From: Escherichia phage muut
Sequence record: NC_052657.1
Length of the DNA: 64,000 bases
Reading direction: 5' to 3' (one strand)
The translations under genes and the position numbers were made by a program. Below are positions 8,958 to 32,884 of the stretch, piece by piece; position 1 is the stretch's first letter, and every line of letters starts with the position of its first letter. The notes beneath the pieces were generated by a model. It was not told where the DNA came from, did not search any database, and saw only the letters and a list, made by a program, of their open reading frames with translations.

Positions 8958-9388
8958 ATAAATTACTTCAGTGTTACCACAAAGTGACGAACTGCTTTTC
9001 GTGCAGCAGAAGCCAGAGGCTTAGCATACTTAAGTTCATCTTTTTCCATTATAAATTCTCTTTTAAATGAAAATGCAGGACTTATTGGCATTGCCTGCGC
9101 AAGCCCTCAAGGGGAACATAGGTTTTTGTATATTTAACGACCAGGATAACCATAAACCCGTCATCATTCACATTCAAGAGGTACACCATAAAACTGCCGG
9201 GGTCTTAAAACTATAATGATTCGCAAATCATTAATCAGACAGTTCGATGGCTCCTCGATTTTAGCTCACACTAAGGCAGTGAATCTCCAATAAACTAAAA
9301 AATCACTTAAAAAGAACCGCTAGAGTTTGAAGGAGAAAACCATGAGCGAAAAGAGAAATTTTCTCTAGCGATTCCATTTAAATAATCT

Positions 9389-9463
9389 TGGAGCGAGTAA
9401 CAGGACTTGAACCTGCACCTGGAGGGTGGAAACCTCATATGCTACCATTAACACTATACCCGC
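9389..9463 (-). tRNA. tRNA-Gly (anticodon UCC)
   Basis: 75 nt; anticodon loop TTTCCAC, T arm GCAGG-TTCAAGT-CCTGT, acceptor GCGGGTA/TACTCGC with one G-U, CCA. Confidence 0.6.
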
Positions 9464-9518
9464 TTAACAATATTACTCTAACATATTATTAGCCCCTTTG
9501 TCAAGAGGCTTTTAATAT

Positions 9519-9842
9519 TTATTTTAAAATAGTAGATGCACCACGTCTGTTTAGATATGCAACCGTAAAGCTCAAATCACCTATTTCTTCAGGTTCCCAC
9601 TGACCTTCTAAGCCATAACAAGAACAATGATATGCGTGTACTTCATAAAACAAAGATGTTTTCATATCATAGAAATAAACGTGAGATTCGCCTTCATAAT
9701 ATGCACAATCATAAGTGGCAGAAAGAATTACAATGTTATCCTTATCTAACTCTACTTCATAATATCTTTCAACATCTTCAATATCATCAAAACCATCGAA
9801 AACATTGATATTAAAATATTTCTCTAACTCTTTTTCTGTCAC
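9519..9842 (-). CDS. hypothetical protein (about 107 aa) embedded in tRNA array
   Basis: ORF between tRNA-Gly and tRNA-Thr; probable GTG start with AGGGGG RBS. Confidence 0.45.
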   Translation of the reverse strand: MTEKELEKYFNINVFDGFDDIEDVERYYEVELDKDNIVILSATYDCAYYEGESHVYFYDMKTSLFYEVHAYHCSCYGLEGQWEPEEIGDLSFTVAYLNRRGASTILK

Positions 9843-9865
9843 ATACACCCCCTTTAGAGTTAAAT

Positions 9866-9940
9866 TGGTGCTCCCACAAGGACTCGAACCTTGATAAGTT
9901 GCTTACAAGGCAACCGTAATAGCCGTTATACGATAGGAGC
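9866..9940 (-). tRNA. tRNA-Thr (anticodon UGU)
   Basis: 75 nt; anticodon arm GTTGC-CTTGTAA-GCAAC, T arm CAAGG-TTCGAGT-CCTTG, acceptor 7 bp with one G-U, CCA. Confidence 0.65.
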
Positions 9941-10019
9941 AAAATATTTGCTTGGTAGGATTTGATACCTACAATTCTAGAAAATTCTAGAGGTTTCTAT
10001 TAACTCTACAAGCACTATT

Positions 10020-10104
10020 TGGCGATGGATCAAGGATTTGAACCTTGCTAGAACTTTCGTTCACGGATTAACAGTCCGTCGCCCAACCACTAGGCCAATC
10101 CATC
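10020..10104 (-). tRNA. tRNA-Asn (anticodon GUU) with unusually long variable arm
   Basis: Exact acceptor GATGGAT/ATCCATC, CCA, discriminator G; anticodon arm ACGGA-CTGTTAA-TCCGT; 15-nt variable hairpin GAAC-GAAA-GTTC. Confidence 0.5.
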
Positions 10105-10111
10105 TTTAATT

Positions 10112-10198
10112 TGGTGCAGGTAGTTGGACTCGAACCAACGAAGCCCCGAAGGGCAGGAGATTTACAGTCTCCAGCAATTGCCGCTATGCGATACCTAC
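10112..10198 (-). tRNA. tRNA-Tyr (anticodon GUA)
   Basis: 87 nt type II; anticodon arm GGAGA-CTGTAAA-TCTCC, variable hairpin GCCC-TTCG-GGGC, T arm GTTGG-TTCGAGT-CCAAC, CCA. Confidence 0.7.
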
Positions 10199-10203
10199 GT
10201 GTT

Positions 10204-10278
10204 TGGTACATCGTGAAGGATTCGAACCTTCGACCTTGGAGTTAAAAGCCCTTGCTCTACCAACTAAGCTAACGATGT
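10204..10278 (-). tRNA. tRNA-Lys (anticodon UUU)
   Basis: 75 nt; exact acceptor ACATCGT/ACGATGT, D arm GCTT-AGTTGGTA-GAGC, loop CTTTTAA, T arm GAAGG-TTCGAAT-CCTTC; anticodon stem only 3 bp. Confidence 0.6.
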
Positions 10279-10406
10279 ATAAATTATCTTTAAAATAGCC
10301 AGTGTTTGCGGCACTGACTATGAGGTATCGGTAAAATGGCTGCCACCATCTGCCGAAAGTTTACTCTGCTAAAGTAAGTAGCCTCAACGCTACATTAAAG
10401 ATAACT

Positions 10407-10492
10407 TGGCGGTAGATGTAGGACTTGAACCTACACGCCGTTTCCGACGACAGTTTAGCAAACTGTTGTGGCTACCATTTCACCAATCTACC
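10407..10492 (-). tRNA. tRNA-Ser (anticodon GCU)
   Basis: 86 nt type II; exact acceptor GGTAGAT/ATCTACC, anticodon arm ACAGT-TTGCTAA-ACTGT, long variable arm, CCA. Confidence 0.7.
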
Positions 10493-10500
10493 GTTTTTAA

Positions 10501-10653
10501 TTATTCAAAACAACCGGAATCTTTTTGTTCTGCTTTTACCATACGAATATTTTTACCATCTTCAGATTGTTGAAGATTAGAATACTCATAAACAACTTTA
10601 TTATTTACAATCTTAACTCCGGTAACAACCTGTCCAATAGTTTTATAATTCAT
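10501..10653 (-). CDS. hypothetical protein (50 aa)
   Basis: Start moved to internal ATG (AGGAG RBS) because longer track ORF overlaps tRNA-Ser(UGA). Confidence 0.4.
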   Translation of the reverse strand: MNYKTIGQVVTGVKIVNNKVVYEYSNLQQSEDGKNIRMVKAEQKDSGCFE

Positions 10654-10671
10654 AAAGCTCCTAGTTGAATT

Positions 10672-10761
10672 TGGAGGAAGATAATGGAGTCGAACCATCA
10701 CCGTATCACTACAATGGGCCAGGGTTCAAACCTGGTTGCGCACCGCTGCGCCCTACCTTCC
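10672..10761 (-). tRNA. tRNA-Ser (anticodon UGA)
   Basis: 90 nt type II; acceptor GGAAGGT/ATCTTCC with one G-U, anticodon arm CCAGG-TTTGAAC-CCTGG, T arm GATGG-TTCGACT-CCATT, CCA. Confidence 0.65.
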
Positions 10762-10824
10762 CGTTATCATACTTTAAATCTAACATAAAACTATCTTGCT
10801 TGTCAAGCAGTTTTTAAAACTTTT

Positions 10825-10906
10825 TGGCCGGGGTGACAGGATTCGAACCTGCATACTCCAATTACTCGGTTAACGCCTGATTAGAAGTCAGGTGAGATAC
10901 ACCCCG
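10825..10906 (-). tRNA. tRNA-Arg-like (anticodon UCU), non-canonical arm order
   Basis: Exact acceptor CGGGGTG/CACCCCG, CCA, T arm GCAGG-TTCGAAT-CCTGT; UCU hairpin sits right after U8-A9 and a D-loop-like segment follows it. Confidence 0.4.
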
Positions 10907-10978
10907 TTTTCACAGTAACTATAACAAAAAACTAAGTAAATGTCAAGATATTTTTACTAAAAATATTATTTAAATTGA

Positions 10979-11084
10979 AGCCTAGTTATGGAATCGAACC
11001 ATATTTCGTATTTAGTTAGACAAAGCGGTCTAACATATTTTTCAGGCTTTGATGGCCTCGGAATTACCAAATACCCTACTAGGC
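10979..11084 (-). ncRNA. tRNA-like element, about 105 nt, with large insertion
   Basis: Exact acceptor GCCTAGT/ACTAGGC and T arm TATGG-TTCGATT-CCATA, no CCA; inner hairpins AGGC-CATCAAA-GCCT and GTTAGAC-CGCTTT-GTCTAAC. Confidence 0.3.
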
Positions 11085-11086
11085 GT

Positions 11087-11171
11087 TGGTGCAAGTGGAG
11101 GGATTCGAACCCTCAAGCATTTAAGCGTTGCGTTTTAAGCACAATGTGTATCACCAATTCCACCACACTTG
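11087..11171 (-). tRNA. tRNA-Leu (anticodon UAA)
   Basis: 85 nt type II; exact acceptor GCAAGTG/CACTTGC, anticodon arm TTGTG-CTTAAAA-CGCAA, T arm GAGGG-TTCGAAT-CCCTC, CCA. Confidence 0.65.
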
Positions 11172-11286
11172 CATATAGGAGATGCATAGCACCTCCTTTT
11201 AAATGGTGGTTCCCCAGGGTTACAATCCCTGCCCTCGACACTTATGAGGTGTGCGCTCTCGTCAGTGAGCTATGGAACCTTGAATA

Positions 11287-23237: not shown

Positions 23238-24122
23238 ATGTTTGCTAAAAATTTCAAATCTTGCGTAACCCTGATTTCTGGTGATGGTCTGTCTATTTCC
23301 GCACTGAACACAGTAACAGACAAACCGCTGGATTTTGTTGTGGCACAGGGGCAACAAGCACATACCATTGGTCTTGTTCGTTTTGAAGATGATGGTTCCT
23401 ATGTAAAAGTGTTCTCTGGTTTAGAGGTTATTAAAGTAGGGCAATCTGTTAAGAAAGTTAACAAGAAAAAAGTTAAACGCATTCTTAATGAAAAACTCCA
23501 AGAGATGGAACAAGAGTTTATTGCTGCAAATCCTACTAAAGAATTCTTCTTGGATAAAGAAAGTAAAAAAGCAATTGAGGCTGATATCGTGTTTTCTCTG
23601 CTCCCAGAAACAGAGGCAGATGATTTCTATAACTATGTTGTTGTAGACACTGAGAACAGTATTACCTACGTTCTTAATGGTACTAAGAAAATTAGTGAAG
23701 ATATTGCTGTGTTTCTTCGTGAGGTGTTGGGTACTTTCCCAGTTCTGCCGTTTAGTGTACACGAAGAAGCCATTATTAAAGGTTTTGATACCATCTTAGA
23801 AGAACATGAGGCTGAACGACTGACCCTTGGTAATTATATTAAACTTGAAGATTCTGAAGGTGTGGTTGTATGGAGTAAAGAATCCCTTTATGAATCTCGT
23901 GCAGTAGAACTTATGGAAGATGGTAAGCACGTTGTTGCCATTGGCCTGGAATATGACGGTTTCGTTAACTTTATTGTTGATAAAGAATTTAAGTTGAGTG
24001 GTATTAAATTCCCTAAATACTTTAACGATGAAGAAGGATCTTTTGAAGCATCTGTCCTTCTGTGCTTTAATGAAATCCGTGGTATTATGCAAGACCTTAT
24101 TAAGTCAACTATTCAAAAATAA
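23238..24122 (+). CDS. hypothetical protein (294 aa)
   Basis: Track ORF; no motif recognised. Confidence 0.45.
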   Translation: MFAKNFKSCVTLISGDGLSISALNTVTDKPLDFVVAQGQQAHTIGLVRFEDDGSYVKVFSGLEVIKVGQSVKKVNKKKVKRILNEKLQEMEQEFIAANPTKEFFLDKESKKAIEADIVFSLLPETEADDFYNYVVVDTENSITYVLNGTKKISEDIAVFLREVLGTFPVLPFSVHEEAIIKGFDTILEEHEAERLTLGNYIKLEDSEGVVVWSKESLYESRAVELMEDGKHVVAIGLEYDGFVNFIVDKEFKLSGIKFPKYFNDEEGSFEASVLLCFNEIRGIMQDLIKSTIQK

Positions 24123-24125
24123 TAC

Positions 24126-24155
24126 TTGACTTACTAATTTAATATGTGTTAATAT
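24126..24155 (+). promoter_or_regulatory. sigma70-like promoter (TTGACT-18-TAATAT) followed by 5-prime-UTR hairpin
   Basis: -35 TTGACT at 24126; 7-bp hairpin 24156-24178; then AAGGAGA RBS and ATG 24197. Confidence 0.5.
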
Positions 24156-24196
24156 GCCTACCTACTTAGTTAGGTGGGCTTTTAAGGAGACACACC

Positions 24197-24409
24197 ATGA
24201 AAAAACTTCTTGTCGGTTTACTTTTAGTAATCAGTTCTTATTCTTATGCTGGTCAAATAACTTTAATTAATTCTGGAGAACAAGTTTCTGGAAGTACAAA
24301 ATACTGTTTTTACTCTAACGGTATGTACGACAAGGTTATAGAGGTTTCTGCAAGTCGTCAGTGTCCCTACACACGAACATTCTCAACAGAGAGTTCAGAT
24401 GATGAATAG
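24197..24409 (+). CDS. small secreted protein (70 aa)
   Basis: N-terminal signal peptide MKKLLVGLLLVISSYSYA. Confidence 0.4.
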   Translation: MKKLLVGLLLVISSYSYAGQITLINSGEQVSGSTKYCFYSNGMYDKVIEVSASRQCPYTRTFSTESSDDE

Positions 24410-24417
24410 GAGGTAAT

Positions 24418-25536
24418 ATTAGCGGTTACATTTTAATCCAACCGGAAGACCTGCACAAATATGTTGACGAGAACACAATTCTTGCAATAGACTACGATCA
24501 AGTGGCGTTCCAAGCATCTTCAGCTTTAGAGCAAAGAAAAATCCACGCTGTACACAAGGCTTCCGGTAATGTAAAAGAGTTTGAAACAAGAACAGATTTT
24601 TGGGGTAAATCTTCAAAAAATATTGGAGGATGGTTAGGAGCACTTAACGCGCAACGCGAAGCTGCTGGTAAGAAGTTGTTCTCCAAGGAAGATTTTGAAA
24701 TAAAAGATGTTCAAATAGTCCCAGAGAATATTTCTTTTACGTTTCAAGCTGCAAAGACAAAAATAACCCAGATGGTGGATCACCTAAAACTTCAAAAGTA
24801 TTGCGGTGTCATCGGGGTAGGAAAAACCTTCCGGCATTCTTTCAAAATGCCAAAAGAATATAAATCAGAACGATCAGATTTAAGACCAATCCAATTATCA
24901 GATACTAAAGATTATCTAGTTGAAAAACATAACGGTGACGTTGTTACTGGTATTGAGGCAGATGATGCTTTAGAAATCTATGGATATGCAGGGTATAAAG
25001 CCTACAAGGAAACTGGTAAGTTTTCTCATATTGTAGCATCTATCGACAAAGATAGCTTACACACACCAAGTTTACTCTTTAACTTTTATAAAGAGGATGG
25101 TGTTTATAAAAATCCTTGTGTTATTCTGATTGATGAATCTATCGGTGATATCTGGATCGTAGAAAAAGGTAAGAAAAAAGAAGTTAAGGGTTGGGGTAGT
25201 TACTGGTTAGCTTATCAAATGCTAATGGGCGATAAGACAGATAGTATTCGACCTTACCAAGATTTCGATGTTAAGTTTGGAGATATTACTTGCTTTAATC
25301 TTATTTCCAAATGTAAAACACAGGCTGAACTTTTTCAGACAGTTAAAGATCAGTATTATGAATGGTTCCCAGATGGCGTTAAATTTACTTCTTGGGATGG
25401 TGAAGAAGTAGAAATGACAACTGATGAATGGATAGAGACAATTTTTCAGTTGGTATATATGAAACGTTGGGCGAATGATGAAACAACTTTTGAAAGTATG
25501 CTACAAGCATATATTTCAGAGCAGGAGGAACATTGA
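24418..25536 (+). CDS. rnh: RNase H / 5-prime-3-prime flap exonuclease (T4 rnh-like); non-AUG start likely
   Basis: Motifs ILAIDYDQVAF, EADDALEIYG, SIDKDS, MGDKTDSIRP; conserved N-terminus lies upstream of first in-frame ATG/GTG. Confidence 0.65.
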   Translation: MSGYILIQPEDLHKYVDENTILAIDYDQVAFQASSALEQRKIHAVHKASGNVKEFETRTDFWGKSSKNIGGWLGALNAQREAAGKKLFSKEDFEIKDVQIVPENISFTFQAAKTKITQMVDHLKLQKYCGVIGVGKTFRHSFKMPKEYKSERSDLRPIQLSDTKDYLVEKHNGDVVTGIEADDALEIYGYAGYKAYKETGKFSHIVASIDKDSLHTPSLLFNFYKEDGVYKNPCVILIDESIGDIWIVEKGKKKEVKGWGSYWLAYQMLMGDKTDSIRPYQDFDVKFGDITCFNLISKCKTQAELFQTVKDQYYEWFPDGVKFTSWDGEEVEMTTDEWIETIFQLVYMKRWANDETTFESMLQAYISEQEEH

Positions 25537-26495
25537 GTAAATTAACAGACGAACAGAAAGCCTTGATTGTATCTATGAAAGCACAAGGTTATTCTTCGCG
25601 TAAGATTGCACAAGAGGTGTTGGGAAGTTCTACTAAGAAGAGCACAGTAAATGATTACTTAGCTCGTGTAAATTCACCACATCGCGGTGCTCCGCAAGAT
25701 AAAGGTGGGCCAGTAATTAAAATTATTGACGTAGAGACAGCACCGGAGATTGTGTATAGCTTCTCACGTTTCAAAGCCTTTATTGCACCTGAACAAGTTA
25801 TTCGTCGAGGTTACTTGCTTTCCTATTCATCTGCTGATTTAGAAACAGGGGAAGTAGAAGGTAAGAACCTTAGCAATTACCCTCTGTTTGACATAGATCA
25901 TACAGATGATTGGGAATTATGTCAAGATCTGTGGCACTTGCTTGACGATGCAGATATTGTGATCGCGCACAACGGTATTAAGTTTGATAAGGCTTATATT
26001 AACCAACGTTTTGCTTTTCACGGTATGGAGCCACCATCACACTATGTTGTAATTGATACACTCAAGGCAGCTAAGAAGCAGTTTGCACTACCTTCTAATG
26101 CGCTTAAAGAAATGTGTTTGTATTTTGATACAGAAAACTTTAAACTTGACAATGAAGGTTTTCCTTTGTGGAAAGCATGTTGTGAAGGAGACAGACACGC
26201 CTTCTTCCGTATGCAAACATACAACGATGGTGATGTTGTTTCTCTTAGAGATCTTTACATCAAACTTCGTGCGTGGATTCCACAACATCCTAACGTATCT
26301 GCATTCTATGACGATGAAAAACTTCGTTGTCCTCGTTGCGGTAAAGAGCACCTTGAAGTTGTTCCTGGTAAGGTTTACACAACAGCGGTTAGTACATTCC
26401 AAGTGCTAAGATGCACATCATGTAATAGCCTGTCTCGTGGACGTGTTAATTTGCGTAGCAAAGAGAAGCGTGTAAACACTGTTATTGGAATTTAA
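25533..26495 (+). CDS. DEDD-family 3-prime-5-prime exonuclease with N-terminal HTH and C-terminal zinc ribbon
   Basis: Exo motifs IIDVETAPE and AHNGIKFDKAYI; C-terminal CPRCG...CTSCN. Confidence 0.5.
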   Translation: MSKLTDEQKALIVSMKAQGYSSRKIAQEVLGSSTKKSTVNDYLARVNSPHRGAPQDKGGPVIKIIDVETAPEIVYSFSRFKAFIAPEQVIRRGYLLSYSSADLETGEVEGKNLSNYPLFDIDHTDDWELCQDLWHLLDDADIVIAHNGIKFDKAYINQRFAFHGMEPPSHYVVIDTLKAAKKQFALPSNALKEMCLYFDTENFKLDNEGFPLWKACCEGDRHAFFRMQTYNDGDVVSLRDLYIKLRAWIPQHPNVSAFYDDEKLRCPRCGKEHLEVVPGKVYTTAVSTFQVLRCTSCNSLSRGRVNLRSKEKRVNTVIGI

Positions 26496-28870: not shown

Positions 28871-29842
28871 ATGACAAACTCTATTTCAGCAAAAATTATT
28901 GCACACTCTCAAACATCTGAAGGTAAGGATATTGTTACCTTTGAACTTGAATATCCTCGAATCATTCACTCTGAATTGATGACGCATCGTTTGTTTTCTC
29001 GTAATGCCGCATCAAGTCGAGCTATCCCTGTTAAAACTCTAATTGAAATGGTACGGCAATCTCCCGCACGTCCTTATCGTTTTGGTGCTAACCAACCAGG
29101 TATGCAAGATAAAGGCACAGATCACGATGCCCTGATTGATGCAGGTTACACTGCAAAAGAATGGTGGGACTTGGCTGCGCTAAGTGCTGCACGTTTTGCA
29201 GAAGAGTTTGCCCTTGCTGGTTATCATAAACAGGTTGCAAACCGCCTACTAGAACCATTCCAGCGTATGAAGACTGTAGTAACCACTACAGAGCTAGAAA
29301 ACTTCTTGTGGTTGCGCGTAGATGCTGATGCAGATCCTACTATTGAGGCTCTTGCTAAAGAAATTAAAAAACTGTATGAATCTTCTGAACCATATCTTCT
29401 TTTCCCAGGGGAATGGCATACACCTTACGTTAATCGTGATCGAGATCCAGAAACTGGTATGATCCGTTATTTCTTGGGTGAAACCTTCTCCAACGAGAAA
29501 ATGTTGACAGAAGAGGAAGCAAAAGCTATTTCAGCTTCTTGTTGCGCTCAGGTAAGTTATCGTAAATTGAATGATACTAAAGATAAAGCATTGGATATCT
29601 ATTCTCGTTTGCTGTCTGGACAAAAGGTACATGCATCTCCGTTTGAACACCAGGCAACACCAATGAAAGAAATGGATTTGTCAGGATTAAAACAACAGAA
29701 AGGTGGTATTAATATTCCTCCGTTCCCTACTTCTTGGGAAGAAGGTATTACACACATGGATCGTAAACATCGTTTGTGGAGTGGAAACTTCTGTGGTTGG
29801 ATTCAACATCGTCAACTTTTGACTAACCATACAAAATGGTGA
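28871..29842 (+). CDS. thyX: flavin-dependent thymidylate synthase
   Basis: ThyX signature RHRLFSRNAASSRAIP (RHRxxSxxxxSxR). Confidence 0.85.
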   Translation: MTNSISAKIIAHSQTSEGKDIVTFELEYPRIIHSELMTHRLFSRNAASSRAIPVKTLIEMVRQSPARPYRFGANQPGMQDKGTDHDALIDAGYTAKEWWDLAALSAARFAEEFALAGYHKQVANRLLEPFQRMKTVVTTTELENFLWLRVDADADPTIEALAKEIKKLYESSEPYLLFPGEWHTPYVNRDRDPETGMIRYFLGETFSNEKMLTEEEAKAISASCCAQVSYRKLNDTKDKALDIYSRLLSGQKVHASPFEHQATPMKEMDLSGLKQQKGGINIPPFPTSWEEGITHMDRKHRLWSGNFCGWIQHRQLLTNHTKW

Positions 29843-29939: not shown

Positions 29940-30350
29940 ATGTCACTAATTAATACAACCATTTGGGCGACCGTAAGTATGTCTACCATTAAGGCTACAC
30001 CGATCTGGAAAGAAATGGCTAAAAAGCACGGAGGAAAAATTCCTCACGAGTATCATAACACTACATTGCGAGCAGCATTAGTAATGCTTGGTATGTCTAC
30101 CGATGGACATTATACAGTAGAACGTGGTGTTAATATTCGTAGTAACAACAATCGACGTGTGGTGTTTGCAAATACTACATTGTATACTTTCCCAGTTCGA
30201 CAAGACTATAAATATAAGCGAATCTATCAAGGTGTAGATATTTTGCACTTTGGAGAAGAAGATTTTACAGGTTGGGGTAGCTCTCATATCAAAATGGAAG
30301 ACTTCGGAAATGAACATGATCCATCACGAGATGATGATTCTGAATTCTAA
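29940..30350 (+). CDS. hypothetical protein (136 aa)
   Basis: Track ORF. Confidence 0.45.
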   Translation: MSLINTTIWATVSMSTIKATPIWKEMAKKHGGKIPHEYHNTTLRAALVMLGMSTDGHYTVERGVNIRSNNNRRVVFANTTLYTFPVRQDYKYKRIYQGVDILHFGEEDFTGWGSSHIKMEDFGNEHDPSRDDDSEF

Positions 30351-30622: not shown

Positions 30623-32884
30623 GTGACTCAGTATCTAAGCAAATCTATCCGTTATGTAACAAAAACAAACGGCAAGAAAGAAGAATTTAATCCAGAAAAA
30701 CTTCGTAAATGGTCAGAGTTTGCTGCTGGTAAATTAAATTGGTCTGAAATTGAACTCGAAGCTGTTAAACGTTGTTACGACGGTGTGCCTACTCGTGATT
30801 TACATAAAGCTATGATAGCAGCATGTATTGATAAGAAAGATCAGGCATATAGTGATATGGCAGGTCGGTTACTTCTTGGTATGATTTATAAACAGGCTCA
30901 TGGGGGATATCACAATATCCCCTCCCTCCTGGATTTCTACAATATGTCTGTAAGTAAAGGCTATTGGGGAAAAATGGATTATACAGAAGAAGAAATTATT
31001 GAGATTGGTAAAATTGTCAATCACGATAAAAACCTAACTTATGGTTATTCCGTACTGCGCCAGATGGTTGATAAGTATCTTGTGAAAGATGCGATCAATG
31101 ATGTTGTTTTTGAATCACCACAGTTTTTATTCATTGGTGTAGCAATGAAGGTAATGGAAATTCAACCAAAAGATCGCAGAGTAGAAGACATTAAACGTCT
31201 ATATACCTACGTAAGTGATCTTAAGATTAATTTACCATCACCTTATTTAACAACGTTGCGTACTAAGATTAAAGGTAGTGCTTCTTGTTGTCTGTTTAGA
31301 GCAGATGATACAGCAGAATCTTTAGCAATTGCTAACTATCTTGCTCATGAATATACATTGAATAATGCAGGTATTGGTGTTAACCTCCAAACCCGTGCTA
31401 CAGGACAAGGTGTTAAGAACAACCGTATCGTTCACGGTGGTCTTTTACCATATCTGAAATGGATGGAAACAAGTGTTGGAGCATCAAAACAAGCAAGCCG
31501 TGGTGGAAGTGCAACAGTAACGTTTACAATATTAGAACCTGATTTTGAAGATCTGGTACGTTTGAAAAACCCAACTACTGTTAGTGAAAAACGAGTAGAT
31601 AAACTTGATTACTCTATTGTAGTAAACAATGCTTTCCTGCGCCGTGCAGCAAAAGGTAAAGATTGGATGCTAGTCAGTTATGACGAAGCACCAGAACTCT
31701 ATGATGCGCTTTATAAAAGCGAGGAAGAGTTTGAAGAAGTATATGAAAAAGTTAGTCGCAAACGAATTAAGAAAAAGTTTGTAAAAGCACGAGATCTTCT
31801 GGCAGAAATTATTACACAAAGAGCAGAGACAGGACGTATTTATATGTTCTTTGCGGATAATGCTAATAAGCATACTCCGTTTAAGGATGTTATTTATCAG
31901 TCAAACTTGTGCCAAGAAATTTTCTTACCTACGAAAGCATTTCACAGTATGACTGATCTTTTCACAGGTGAGAATACAGAAGATCAAGAATTGGCATTAT
32001 GCTTCCTGTCTTCTATTGTAGCTGGTCGTGTTACACCAGAAGAATATGAAGATGTTGCATATTATACCGTTCTAACTATTGATAATGTTATTGAAACAAT
32101 GCAGTATCCGTTTAAACATAACGAAATCACTGCTAAAGCACGTAGGTCTATCGGTGTAGGTATTACAAACCTGGCACATTATCTGGCAAGTAATTTTGTT
32201 ACTTATTCAGATCCTTACGGCAAAAAACTAATTCACGAATTAGCAGAAAGACATTATTACTGGTTAGCAAGAGCTTCTCTTCGTTTGGCAAAAGAGAAAG
32301 GTAATGCAGAATGGATGCATAAAACCAAATGGCCTGAAGGATGGTTGCCTATTGATACCTACGCTAAAGCTGTAGACGATATTGGCAATTTTAAACTTAA
32401 AATGGATTGGGAAGGTTTACGACAAGATATCATTGCACAAGGTGGTATCCGAAATAGCGTATTAGCAGCTATTGCTCCAAATGAGTCCAGTAGTCTTGTA
32501 AGTAATACGACTAACTCTGTGTATCCTGTACGTGATACTATAGTTTATAAACAAAGCCAAAAGGGTAATGTTCTGTTTATTGTGCCAGACTACGATAAAC
32601 TAAAAGATATTTACCAATCGGCTTGGGATACACCAGATAAAGATATGGCTGAAGCATATGGACTGTTGACTAAATTCTTAGATCAAGGTGCATCATGTGA
32701 TAAGTGGATTGACTATTCTAAGATGGAAGGTGGTCGTTTATCCATTAAATCAGAAATGCAATATATTCTTCAGTTTGCAAAACTTGGTGGTAAATCTTTG
32801 TACTATCTAAATAGCAGAACAAAATCGGCAACCTCACTCGCTCAAGAGGATGAAGAATCCGGTTGTGAGGCTTGTAAGATGTAA
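30623..32884 (+). CDS. nrdA: ribonucleotide reductase class Ia large subunit
   Basis: 753 aa; N-terminal ATP-cone-like region; active-site NLCQEI; GTG start with AGGAGAGG RBS. Confidence 0.85.
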   Translation: MTQYLSKSIRYVTKTNGKKEEFNPEKLRKWSEFAAGKLNWSEIELEAVKRCYDGVPTRDLHKAMIAACIDKKDQAYSDMAGRLLLGMIYKQAHGGYHNIPSLLDFYNMSVSKGYWGKMDYTEEEIIEIGKIVNHDKNLTYGYSVLRQMVDKYLVKDAINDVVFESPQFLFIGVAMKVMEIQPKDRRVEDIKRLYTYVSDLKINLPSPYLTTLRTKIKGSASCCLFRADDTAESLAIANYLAHEYTLNNAGIGVNLQTRATGQGVKNNRIVHGGLLPYLKWMETSVGASKQASRGGSATVTFTILEPDFEDLVRLKNPTTVSEKRVDKLDYSIVVNNAFLRRAAKGKDWMLVSYDEAPELYDALYKSEEEFEEVYEKVSRKRIKKKFVKARDLLAEIITQRAETGRIYMFFADNANKHTPFKDVIYQSNLCQEIFLPTKAFHSMTDLFTGENTEDQELALCFLSSIVAGRVTPEEYEDVAYYTVLTIDNVIETMQYPFKHNEITAKARRSIGVGITNLAHYLASNFVTYSDPYGKKLIHELAERHYYWLARASLRLAKEKGNAEWMHKTKWPEGWLPIDTYAKAVDDIGNFKLKMDWEGLRQDIIAQGGIRNSVLAAIAPNESSSLVSNTTNSVYPVRDTIVYKQSQKGNVLFIVPDYDKLKDIYQSAWDTPDKDMAEAYGLLTKFLDQGASCDKWIDYSKMEGGRLSIKSEMQYILQFAKLGGKSLYYLNSRTKSATSLAQEDEESGCEACKM

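Follow-up and report, generated by a model that had tools for sequence, protein, structure and literature searches.

The nuclease gene and its reading frame

The 64,000-nucleotide stretch of Escherichia phage muut analysed here (NC_052657.1, referred to below as the window) belongs to a phi92-like myovirus (Stephanstirmvirinae, Justusliebigvirus) and encodes a homologue of phi92 gp085, a predicted nuclease of the flap endonuclease (FEN) family. The reading frame of this nuclease is closed upstream by a stop codon, and its first ATG, GTG, or TTG codon lies downstream of the codons for two invariant aspartates. A strong Shine-Dalgarno (SD) sequence is followed by an in-frame ATT codon at position 24418, and comparison with related phages makes it very probable that translation starts at this ATT. 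The elements that define the start region are as follows.

24197–24409, + strand: upstream open reading frame (ORF), a homologue of phi92 gp086 with 70 amino acids and an N-terminal signal peptide (PHROG 4641)
24403–24405, + strand: in-frame TGA closing the nuclease reading frame upstream, as read from the sequence
24408–24414, + strand: SD sequence, AGGAGG at 24408–24413, extending as AGGAGGT to 24414
24418–24420, + strand: ATT, the proposed initiation codon, separated from AGGAGG by the 4-nucleotide (nt) spacer TAAT
24418–25536, + strand: full coding sequence (CDS) of the FEN-family 5'-3' exonuclease/flap endonuclease, 372 codons plus TGA at 25534–25536
24490–24498, + strand: codons for Asp25-Tyr26-Asp27, at the end of the core strand β1
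24502–24504, + strand: GTG, codon 29 counted from ATT and the first canonical start codon in frame; the GenBank-annotated start, without an SD sequence and not conserved

The protein of 372 residues counted from ATT matches PHROG 107 ("exonuclease") with an E value of 2.3e-60. It matches no Pfam model at E < 0.01 and no NCBIfam model, and PDB searches with it, by sequence and by profile, gave no match; 9 of 31 homologues match PF02739 on their own, with a best E value of 1.6e-5. The predicted structure is most similar to the plastid 5'-3' exonuclease 9l55 (16.8) and the M. smegmatis flap endonuclease 6c33 (15.1), followed by E. coli ExoIX (14.8), the T5 5'-exonuclease (14.4), and T4 RNase H (1tfr, 13.8), with FEN1, EXO1, XPG, and GEN1 next in the ranking; Foldseek agrees. 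The predicted model contains the PIN-like α/β core fold common to solved 5' nucleases, and hhalign aligned the family profile (A1) to a PF02739+PF01367 exonuclease with a probability of 99.6 and an E value of 1.3e-23. The residues Asp25, Asp27, Glu180, Asp182, Asp183, Asp210, Asp212, Asp272, and Asp275 are invariant in the 31 homologues, and in the hhalign alignment the invariant acidic blocks correspond to VDGD, IEADD, IDKD, and GDKTD of the PF02739+PF01367 protein. These residues are predicted to form a metal-binding carboxylate cluster, the first member of which is placed directly after β1 near the N-terminus.

In the structure model, β1 consists of residues 21–25 and is followed by a helix of residues 26–37, while residues 5–14 are also structured, with predicted local distance difference test (pLDDT) values of at least 85. 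The segment LAIDYDQVAF aligns to ALVDGDIIVY, residues 3–12 of the PF02739+PF01367 exonuclease, which forms the first acidic motif of 5' nucleases. Since GTG 24502 is codon 29, the annotated product of 344 amino acids would lack β1, Asp25, and Asp27, and the alignment and the model indicate that residues 1–28 are probably needed for an intact fold and active site. An earlier reading of the stretch from its sequence only (the sequence-only reading) had named the gene RNase H/flap endonuclease, which the structure matches, the hhalign probability, and the PF02739 matches show to be right at the superfamily level. The conserved N-terminal block that it had noticed upstream of GTG 24502 is borne out by the invariant aspartates aligned to VDGD, and its description of the site and the positions that it gave for the AGGAGG, the in-frame ATT, and the first canonical codon are exact.

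Ribosome-binding site and conservation of the proposed start codon

The hexamer AGGAGG occurs 40 times in the window, compared with 16.4 ± 3.6 times in shuffled sequences. Among the 78 GGAGG sites of the window, 42 have a canonical start codon at a distance of 3–10 nt with an ORF of 40 or more amino acids behind it, and the most frequent spacing at these sites is 4 nt (19/42), equal to that at ATT 24418. The arrangement at the nuclease gene exceeds chance: in its ribosome-binding site (RBS), AGGAGG stands 4 nt before a near-cognate codon, at the commonest spacing of the window. No other GGAGG of the window is without a canonical start codon and yet has, 3–9 nt further on, a near-cognate codon from which a long ORF runs that is not just the interior of another gene. 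A second candidate ATT start, preceded by the GGAGG at 30030, was discarded because it is located inside the ATG-started ORF 29940–30350.

The locus was gathered from GenBank phages, IMG/VR, metagenomes, and one Logan contig, and relatives with 62–100% protein identity were defined as the clade set, comprising 16 distinct start contexts. In all 16 contexts, an invariant AGGRGG hexamer is followed by a spacer of 4–5 nt with variable sequence and then by ATT, ATC, or ATA, that is, by an AUH codon in the mRNA (H = U, C, or A). ATT is used in five contexts (window type, phAPEC8/ESCO5, L022, L024, and L028), ATC in nine (FKP3, L018, L020, L021, L102, L103, L104, L106, and L108), and ATA in two (L105 and L109), with ATG, GTG, or TTG at the start position in none of the 16. 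In L020, L102, L104, and L108, an in-frame TAA immediately precedes the ATC, which makes a start further upstream impossible. The ORF beginning at the AUH codon is intact in every context, encoding 370–383 amino acids.

Analysis of the first codons revealed that coding constraint extends from codon 2 onward. Gly3 is encoded by GGT, GGC, GGG, and GGA among the relatives and Ser2 by AGC or TCA, and the single indel in the start region of the relatives measures exactly 3 nt, or one codon. Across codons 2–15, variation affects 6 first, 6 second, and 12 third codon positions, and a crude count of pairwise codon differences gave 195 synonymous versus 103 non-synonymous, a ratio that would fit purifying selection on the N-terminus.

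In distant homologues with at most 45% identity, from Vequintavirinae, Mydovirus, Aeromonas, and Vibrio phages, a TTG, GTG, or ATG codon occupies the homologous position, preceded by an equivalent SD sequence and followed by Gly-Tyr-Pro or a similar sequence. The canonical starts at the aligned [start]-Gly-Tyr position indicate that codon 1 of the clade is homologous to a genuine initiation codon. The comparison of homologue start sites, which the sequence-only reading had suggested as a check, thus yielded an AUH codon throughout the clade and canonical codons at the aligned position beyond it, and the interpretation offered there, a non-AUG start at ATT 24418, gains support from the SD sequence, the conservation in the clade, and the N-terminal constraint. 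Taken over these contexts, the AUH start appears to have been inherited and maintained across the whole Stephanstirmvirinae-like clade.

Proposed mechanism and alternative readings

We propose that the strong SD sequence AGGAGGU (24408–24414), with its 4-nt spacing, would recruit 30S subunits and select the AUU at 24418, which would presumably be read by initiator tRNA with a mismatch at the third position. The product would accordingly begin with (f)Met and not with Ile, so that the N-terminal peptide would be (M)SGYILIQPEDLHK. The AUU codon would keep the nuclease yield low, at a few percent of the AUG output, and the strong SD sequence, together with the upstream ORF stop inside it, would guarantee a minimum of expression, supplied by de novo initiation and perhaps also by termination-reinitiation. 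The upstream stop (TAG, 24407–24409) overlaps the SD sequence, so translational coupling is possible, and the nuclease gene may indeed be coupled to the upstream ORF. In E. coli, AUA, AUC, and AUU initiate at approximately 1–2% of the AUG level, with values of 0.02–3% in other reporters (bioRxiv 10.1101/063800), and the infC layout (stop codon, 3 nt, AUU) gives twice the expression of a single-cistron AUU and one quarter of the AUG level (PMC3592434). By analogy with the E. coli literature, the AUU start may also be sensitive to initiation factor 3 (IF3).

The purpose of the AUH start is, on balance, likely to be the limitation of the dose of a potentially harmful DNA nuclease. Across the family, approximately 58 distinct start contexts comprise about 20 ATG, about 13 TTG, 9 GTG, and 16 AUH codons; the start classifier mis-picked L054, L055, L058, L139, and probably L136 (the start of which is uncertain), and these were corrected by hand, so the counts for the distant clades are approximate. 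Within the window, by contrast, ATG starts 75 of the 85 genes of a crude gene model. Among the clade members, the start codon has changed at its third base at least five times, always among T, C, and A, with none to G. A low-dose trait is plausible because ATG is in the minority across the family, compared with its predominance in the window, and because the third base is never G. The use of ATG in only about one third of the family start contexts suggests that these phages hold their 5' nuclease at a low dose.

Several points weigh against the proposed explanation as a whole. That the nuclease is toxic is an assumption drawn from what is generally known of FEN-family enzymes. The GTG and TTG enrichment of the distant clades ignores phylogeny and the codon usage of each genome and is only suggestive, and so is the absence of G after at least five changes, which are too few for significance by themselves, with an expectation of (2/3)^5, or about 0.13. 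The placement of the start depends not only on the codon itself but also on the upstream stops and the SD sequence. A literature search on this start and on near-cognate (ATT/AUU-type) phage starts found nothing on this gene, including proteomics or ribosome profiling of the start. RNA folding of 24360–24480 gave no structure above that of shuffled controls (z = -0.41), which implies that the site would be accessible without coupling; a hairpin gating the SD sequence had been considered and was dropped on the same result.

It is possible, though we consider it rather unlikely, that the AUH start is mainly regulatory, either responding to IF3 availability and initiation fidelity during infection or strictly requiring that the upstream ORF be translated. 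In all clade members, that ORF terminates inside the SD sequence or just ahead of it, and infC has the same layout of stop codon, short gap, and AUU (PMC3592434). Re-initiation requires initiator tRNA; over-expression of IF3 lowers it and blocks M13 growth (PMC2268962), and for Streptomyces sigR, repression of a non-canonical GTC start via IF3 is reported (PMC5472188). However, a dependence on IF3 at the phage start would be a conjecture by analogy, and no structure sequesters the SD sequence, so de novo initiation should be possible. Moreover, the genes of this phage are in general tightly packed, with stop codons close to the following start, as in the TTGA overlap with the next gene. The regulatory account refines the dose-limitation explanation rather than replacing it.

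Initiation at another in-frame near-cognate codon, namely ATT 24430, ATC 24436, or CTG 24451 (Leu12), is improbable. Each of these codons is in frame and would keep Asp25 and Asp27, and in the relative L021 a TTG at the Leu12 position was taken as the start by the gene caller (P0006). However, AGGAGG is too distant from them, at 16 nt before ATT 24430, 22 nt before ATC 24436, and 37 nt before CTG 24451. The Leu12 codon varies among CTG, CTT, CTA, TTA, and TTG, as expected of an internal leucine, and residues 2–11 are conserved with synonymous changes, including the four codons of Gly3, which indicates that they are translated. In addition, the canonical start of the distant homologues sits at the position of codon 1 and not at any of these codons.

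The window encodes 15 tRNAs, with a tRNA cluster at 8242–11279. One of them, tRNA-Met(CAU) at 8464–8542 on the minus strand, resembles an initiator in its C1xC72 mismatch (non-standard in the Rfam alignment), its A11:U24 pair, and the CGCGGG 5' end of its acceptor. Its anticodon stem, CCAGU/GCUGG, is without the run of three G:C pairs that bacterial initiators typically have there and that underlies the IF3 proofreading of initiator tRNA. Copies of this tRNA with at least 90% identity occur throughout the Stephanstirmvirinae, and more distant ones in other phages. We regard it as very doubtful that the AUH start serves as a sensor in which nuclease synthesis would be gated by host initiation fidelity (the IF3-to-ribosome ratio) during infection, perhaps with the participation of the phage tRNA-Met, and a link of this tRNA to AUH initiation is speculative. 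If such a sensor existed, the phage would reprogram start selection and switch on a class of genes with near-cognate starts. Contrary to this idea, the tRNA-Met is widespread in phages whose homologous gene starts canonically, and an AUH start is found in only this one gene within the 64-kb window.

Translation from the annotated GTG 24502, with a functional 344-residue protein and an untranslated open frame upstream, is highly improbable. This GTG is the first canonical codon in frame and is annotated in all Justusliebigvirus records inspected. The phi92 record, however, comments on its GTG call with "No RBS identified; weak Prodigal statistics", in line with the absence of an SD sequence before GTG 24502. 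In relatives, the codon at this position is ATT, ATA, ATC, or GTT, and the next canonical start there is located about 143 codons downstream. Codon-like conservation extends across codons 2–28, and the GTG-started product would miss the invariant aspartates and the core strand described above.

A fusion of the nuclease to the upstream signal-peptide ORF by readthrough, recoding, or frameshifting has almost nothing to recommend it. A metagenome gene call of 444 amino acids (P0002, from a cluster of 48 sequences) represents such a fusion, with glutamine at the stop position, and in FKP3-like phages both ORFs are in the same frame with a TAG between them. However, the DNA behind P0002 (L096 1501–2835, Logan contig SRR30397360_28145) contains a plain TAG, and its translation is not the query protein; the fusion is an artefact of a gene-calling model that decodes TAG as Gln. 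The fusion is rejected because the two ORFs do not keep a constant frame relation (the window, L021, and L109 differ in it) and because two successive in-frame stops are present in several relatives. No slippery site was found between TGA 24403 and TAG 24409, and a secretion signal on a DNA nuclease would be biologically senseless.

Finally, an error in sequencing or assembly, or an inactivating mutation of recent date, could have removed a canonical start or created the upstream stop, in a gene that normally starts with ATG or is a pseudogene here. This is the usual explanation where a conserved N-terminus precedes the first start codon. The error, which the sequence-only reading had named as the alternative, and the pseudogene are excluded by the presence of region 24100–25700 at 95% identity or more in 54 independently sequenced GenBank phage genomes, by the same sequence in IMG/VR and metagenome contigs, and by the retention of the SD sequence, the AUH codon, and the intact ORF in relatives down to 62% identity; the crude N-terminal codon count would fit purifying selection.

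Annotation, neighbouring genes, and comparison with known systems

Each of the nine Stephanstirmvirinae GenBank records inspected carries a shortened CDS that lacks between 28 and about 143 codons, and such annotations remove predicted catalytic residues of the nuclease. In ESCO5 (L004), FKP3 (L005), phAPEC8_ev052 (L100), and Klebsiella phage DP (L006), the GenBank CDS begins 68 to about 143 codons late. Two small spurious ORFs on the opposite strand are annotated within the unannotated 5' part of the FKP3 nuclease gene, and in Klebsiella phage DP a good GTG start behind GAGAGGG was missed by the annotation. The lack of a canonical start at the locus can also trigger false calls of stop-codon recoding, as in the case of P0002. 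The corrected start gives the true 372-residue enzyme for cloning, structural work, and phage engineering. If confirmed, the start would be a natural third case of AUU beside infC and pcnB, together with a natural use of AUC and AUA, conserved throughout a subfamily of phages that infect E. coli, Klebsiella, and Salmonella.

The nuclease gene is flanked by two further elements of the presumed transcription unit.

24126–24155, + strand: promoter-like element, TTGACT-18 nt-TAATAT with TG before the -10 element, a consensus match only
25523–25535, + strand: start of the next gene, SD sequence AGGAGG at 25523–25528, a 4-nt spacer, and a TTG start codon at 25533

After the promoter-like element, an 8-bp hairpin (CCTACCTA...TAGGTGGG) followed by TTTT occupies approximately 24158–24187. 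Both elements sit between an RdgC-like gene (23238–24122, matching PF04381) and the gp086-like ORF, and the region 24126–24187 might act as a promoter or a terminator or might form a structure of the 5' untranslated region. The promoter-like element may drive a unit of the gp086 homologue, the nuclease, and a DnaQ-like gene. The latter (25523–26495, + strand) encodes a DnaQ-like 3'-5' exonuclease (PF13482, RNase_H_2; annotated as "DNA polymerase exonuclease subunit"), and its TTG start overlaps the nuclease stop as TTGA at the downstream end of the unit. It is a further DNA-metabolism nuclease with a weak start codon. Further downstream are a ThyX-like ORF (28871–29842, + strand) with the motif ...THRLFSRNAASSRAIP... 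and a GTG-started ORF of 753 amino acids resembling the ribonucleotide reductase large subunit (30623–32884, + strand), both labelled from their translations alone. The ThyX-like, ribonucleotide reductase-like, and RdgC-like neighbours would place the nuclease gene in a module of nucleotide metabolism and replication.

The phage protein shares with the FEN 5' nucleases (T4 RNase H, T5 D15, ExoIX, and the Pol I 5' domain) the acidic motifs IEADD, DKD, and GDxxD and the position of the first catalytic Asp after β1 near the N-terminus. It differs from them in being only 12–22% identical and in reaching no Pfam or NCBIfam model by itself. The T4 rnh and T5 D15 genes start with ATG.

Among genes with non-canonical starts, E. 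coli infC resembles the phage gene in that a conserved AUU follows a few nucleotides after the preceding stop codon, UAA-GGU-AUU after thrS compared with UAG-GAGGUAAU-AUU here, and its AUU lowers initiation relative to AUG (PMC3592434; 10.1101/063800). infC is autoregulated by its own product, whereas no such loop is possible for the phage nuclease. Unlike that of infC, the phage start codon drifts among AUU, AUC, and AUA, is served by a full AGGAGG SD sequence, and belongs to a viral gene. The rarity of ATT starts, remarked on in the sequence-only reading, is reflected in E. coli, where infC and pcnB are the only confirmed AUU starts (bioRxiv 10.1101/063800). In pcnB, which encodes poly(A) polymerase I, the AUU restricts the translation of an enzyme whose excess does harm (Binns & Masters 2002, cited in both PMC3592434 and 10.1101/063800), and by this likeness pcnB would be the closest functional analogy to the proposed explanation. 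It differs in being a chromosomal host gene for another enzyme, and harm from excess phage nuclease is an assumption. The GTC start of Streptomyces sigR is likewise reported to be a conserved non-canonical start that acts as a translational control point (PMC5472188), but it involves another codon class, organism, and protein, and the role of IF3 is demonstrated there and conjectured here. The start mechanism itself is thus already known from infC and pcnB; the phage start stands out by its conservation throughout a phage subfamily, by the use of each of the three AUH codons, and by its systematic misannotation.

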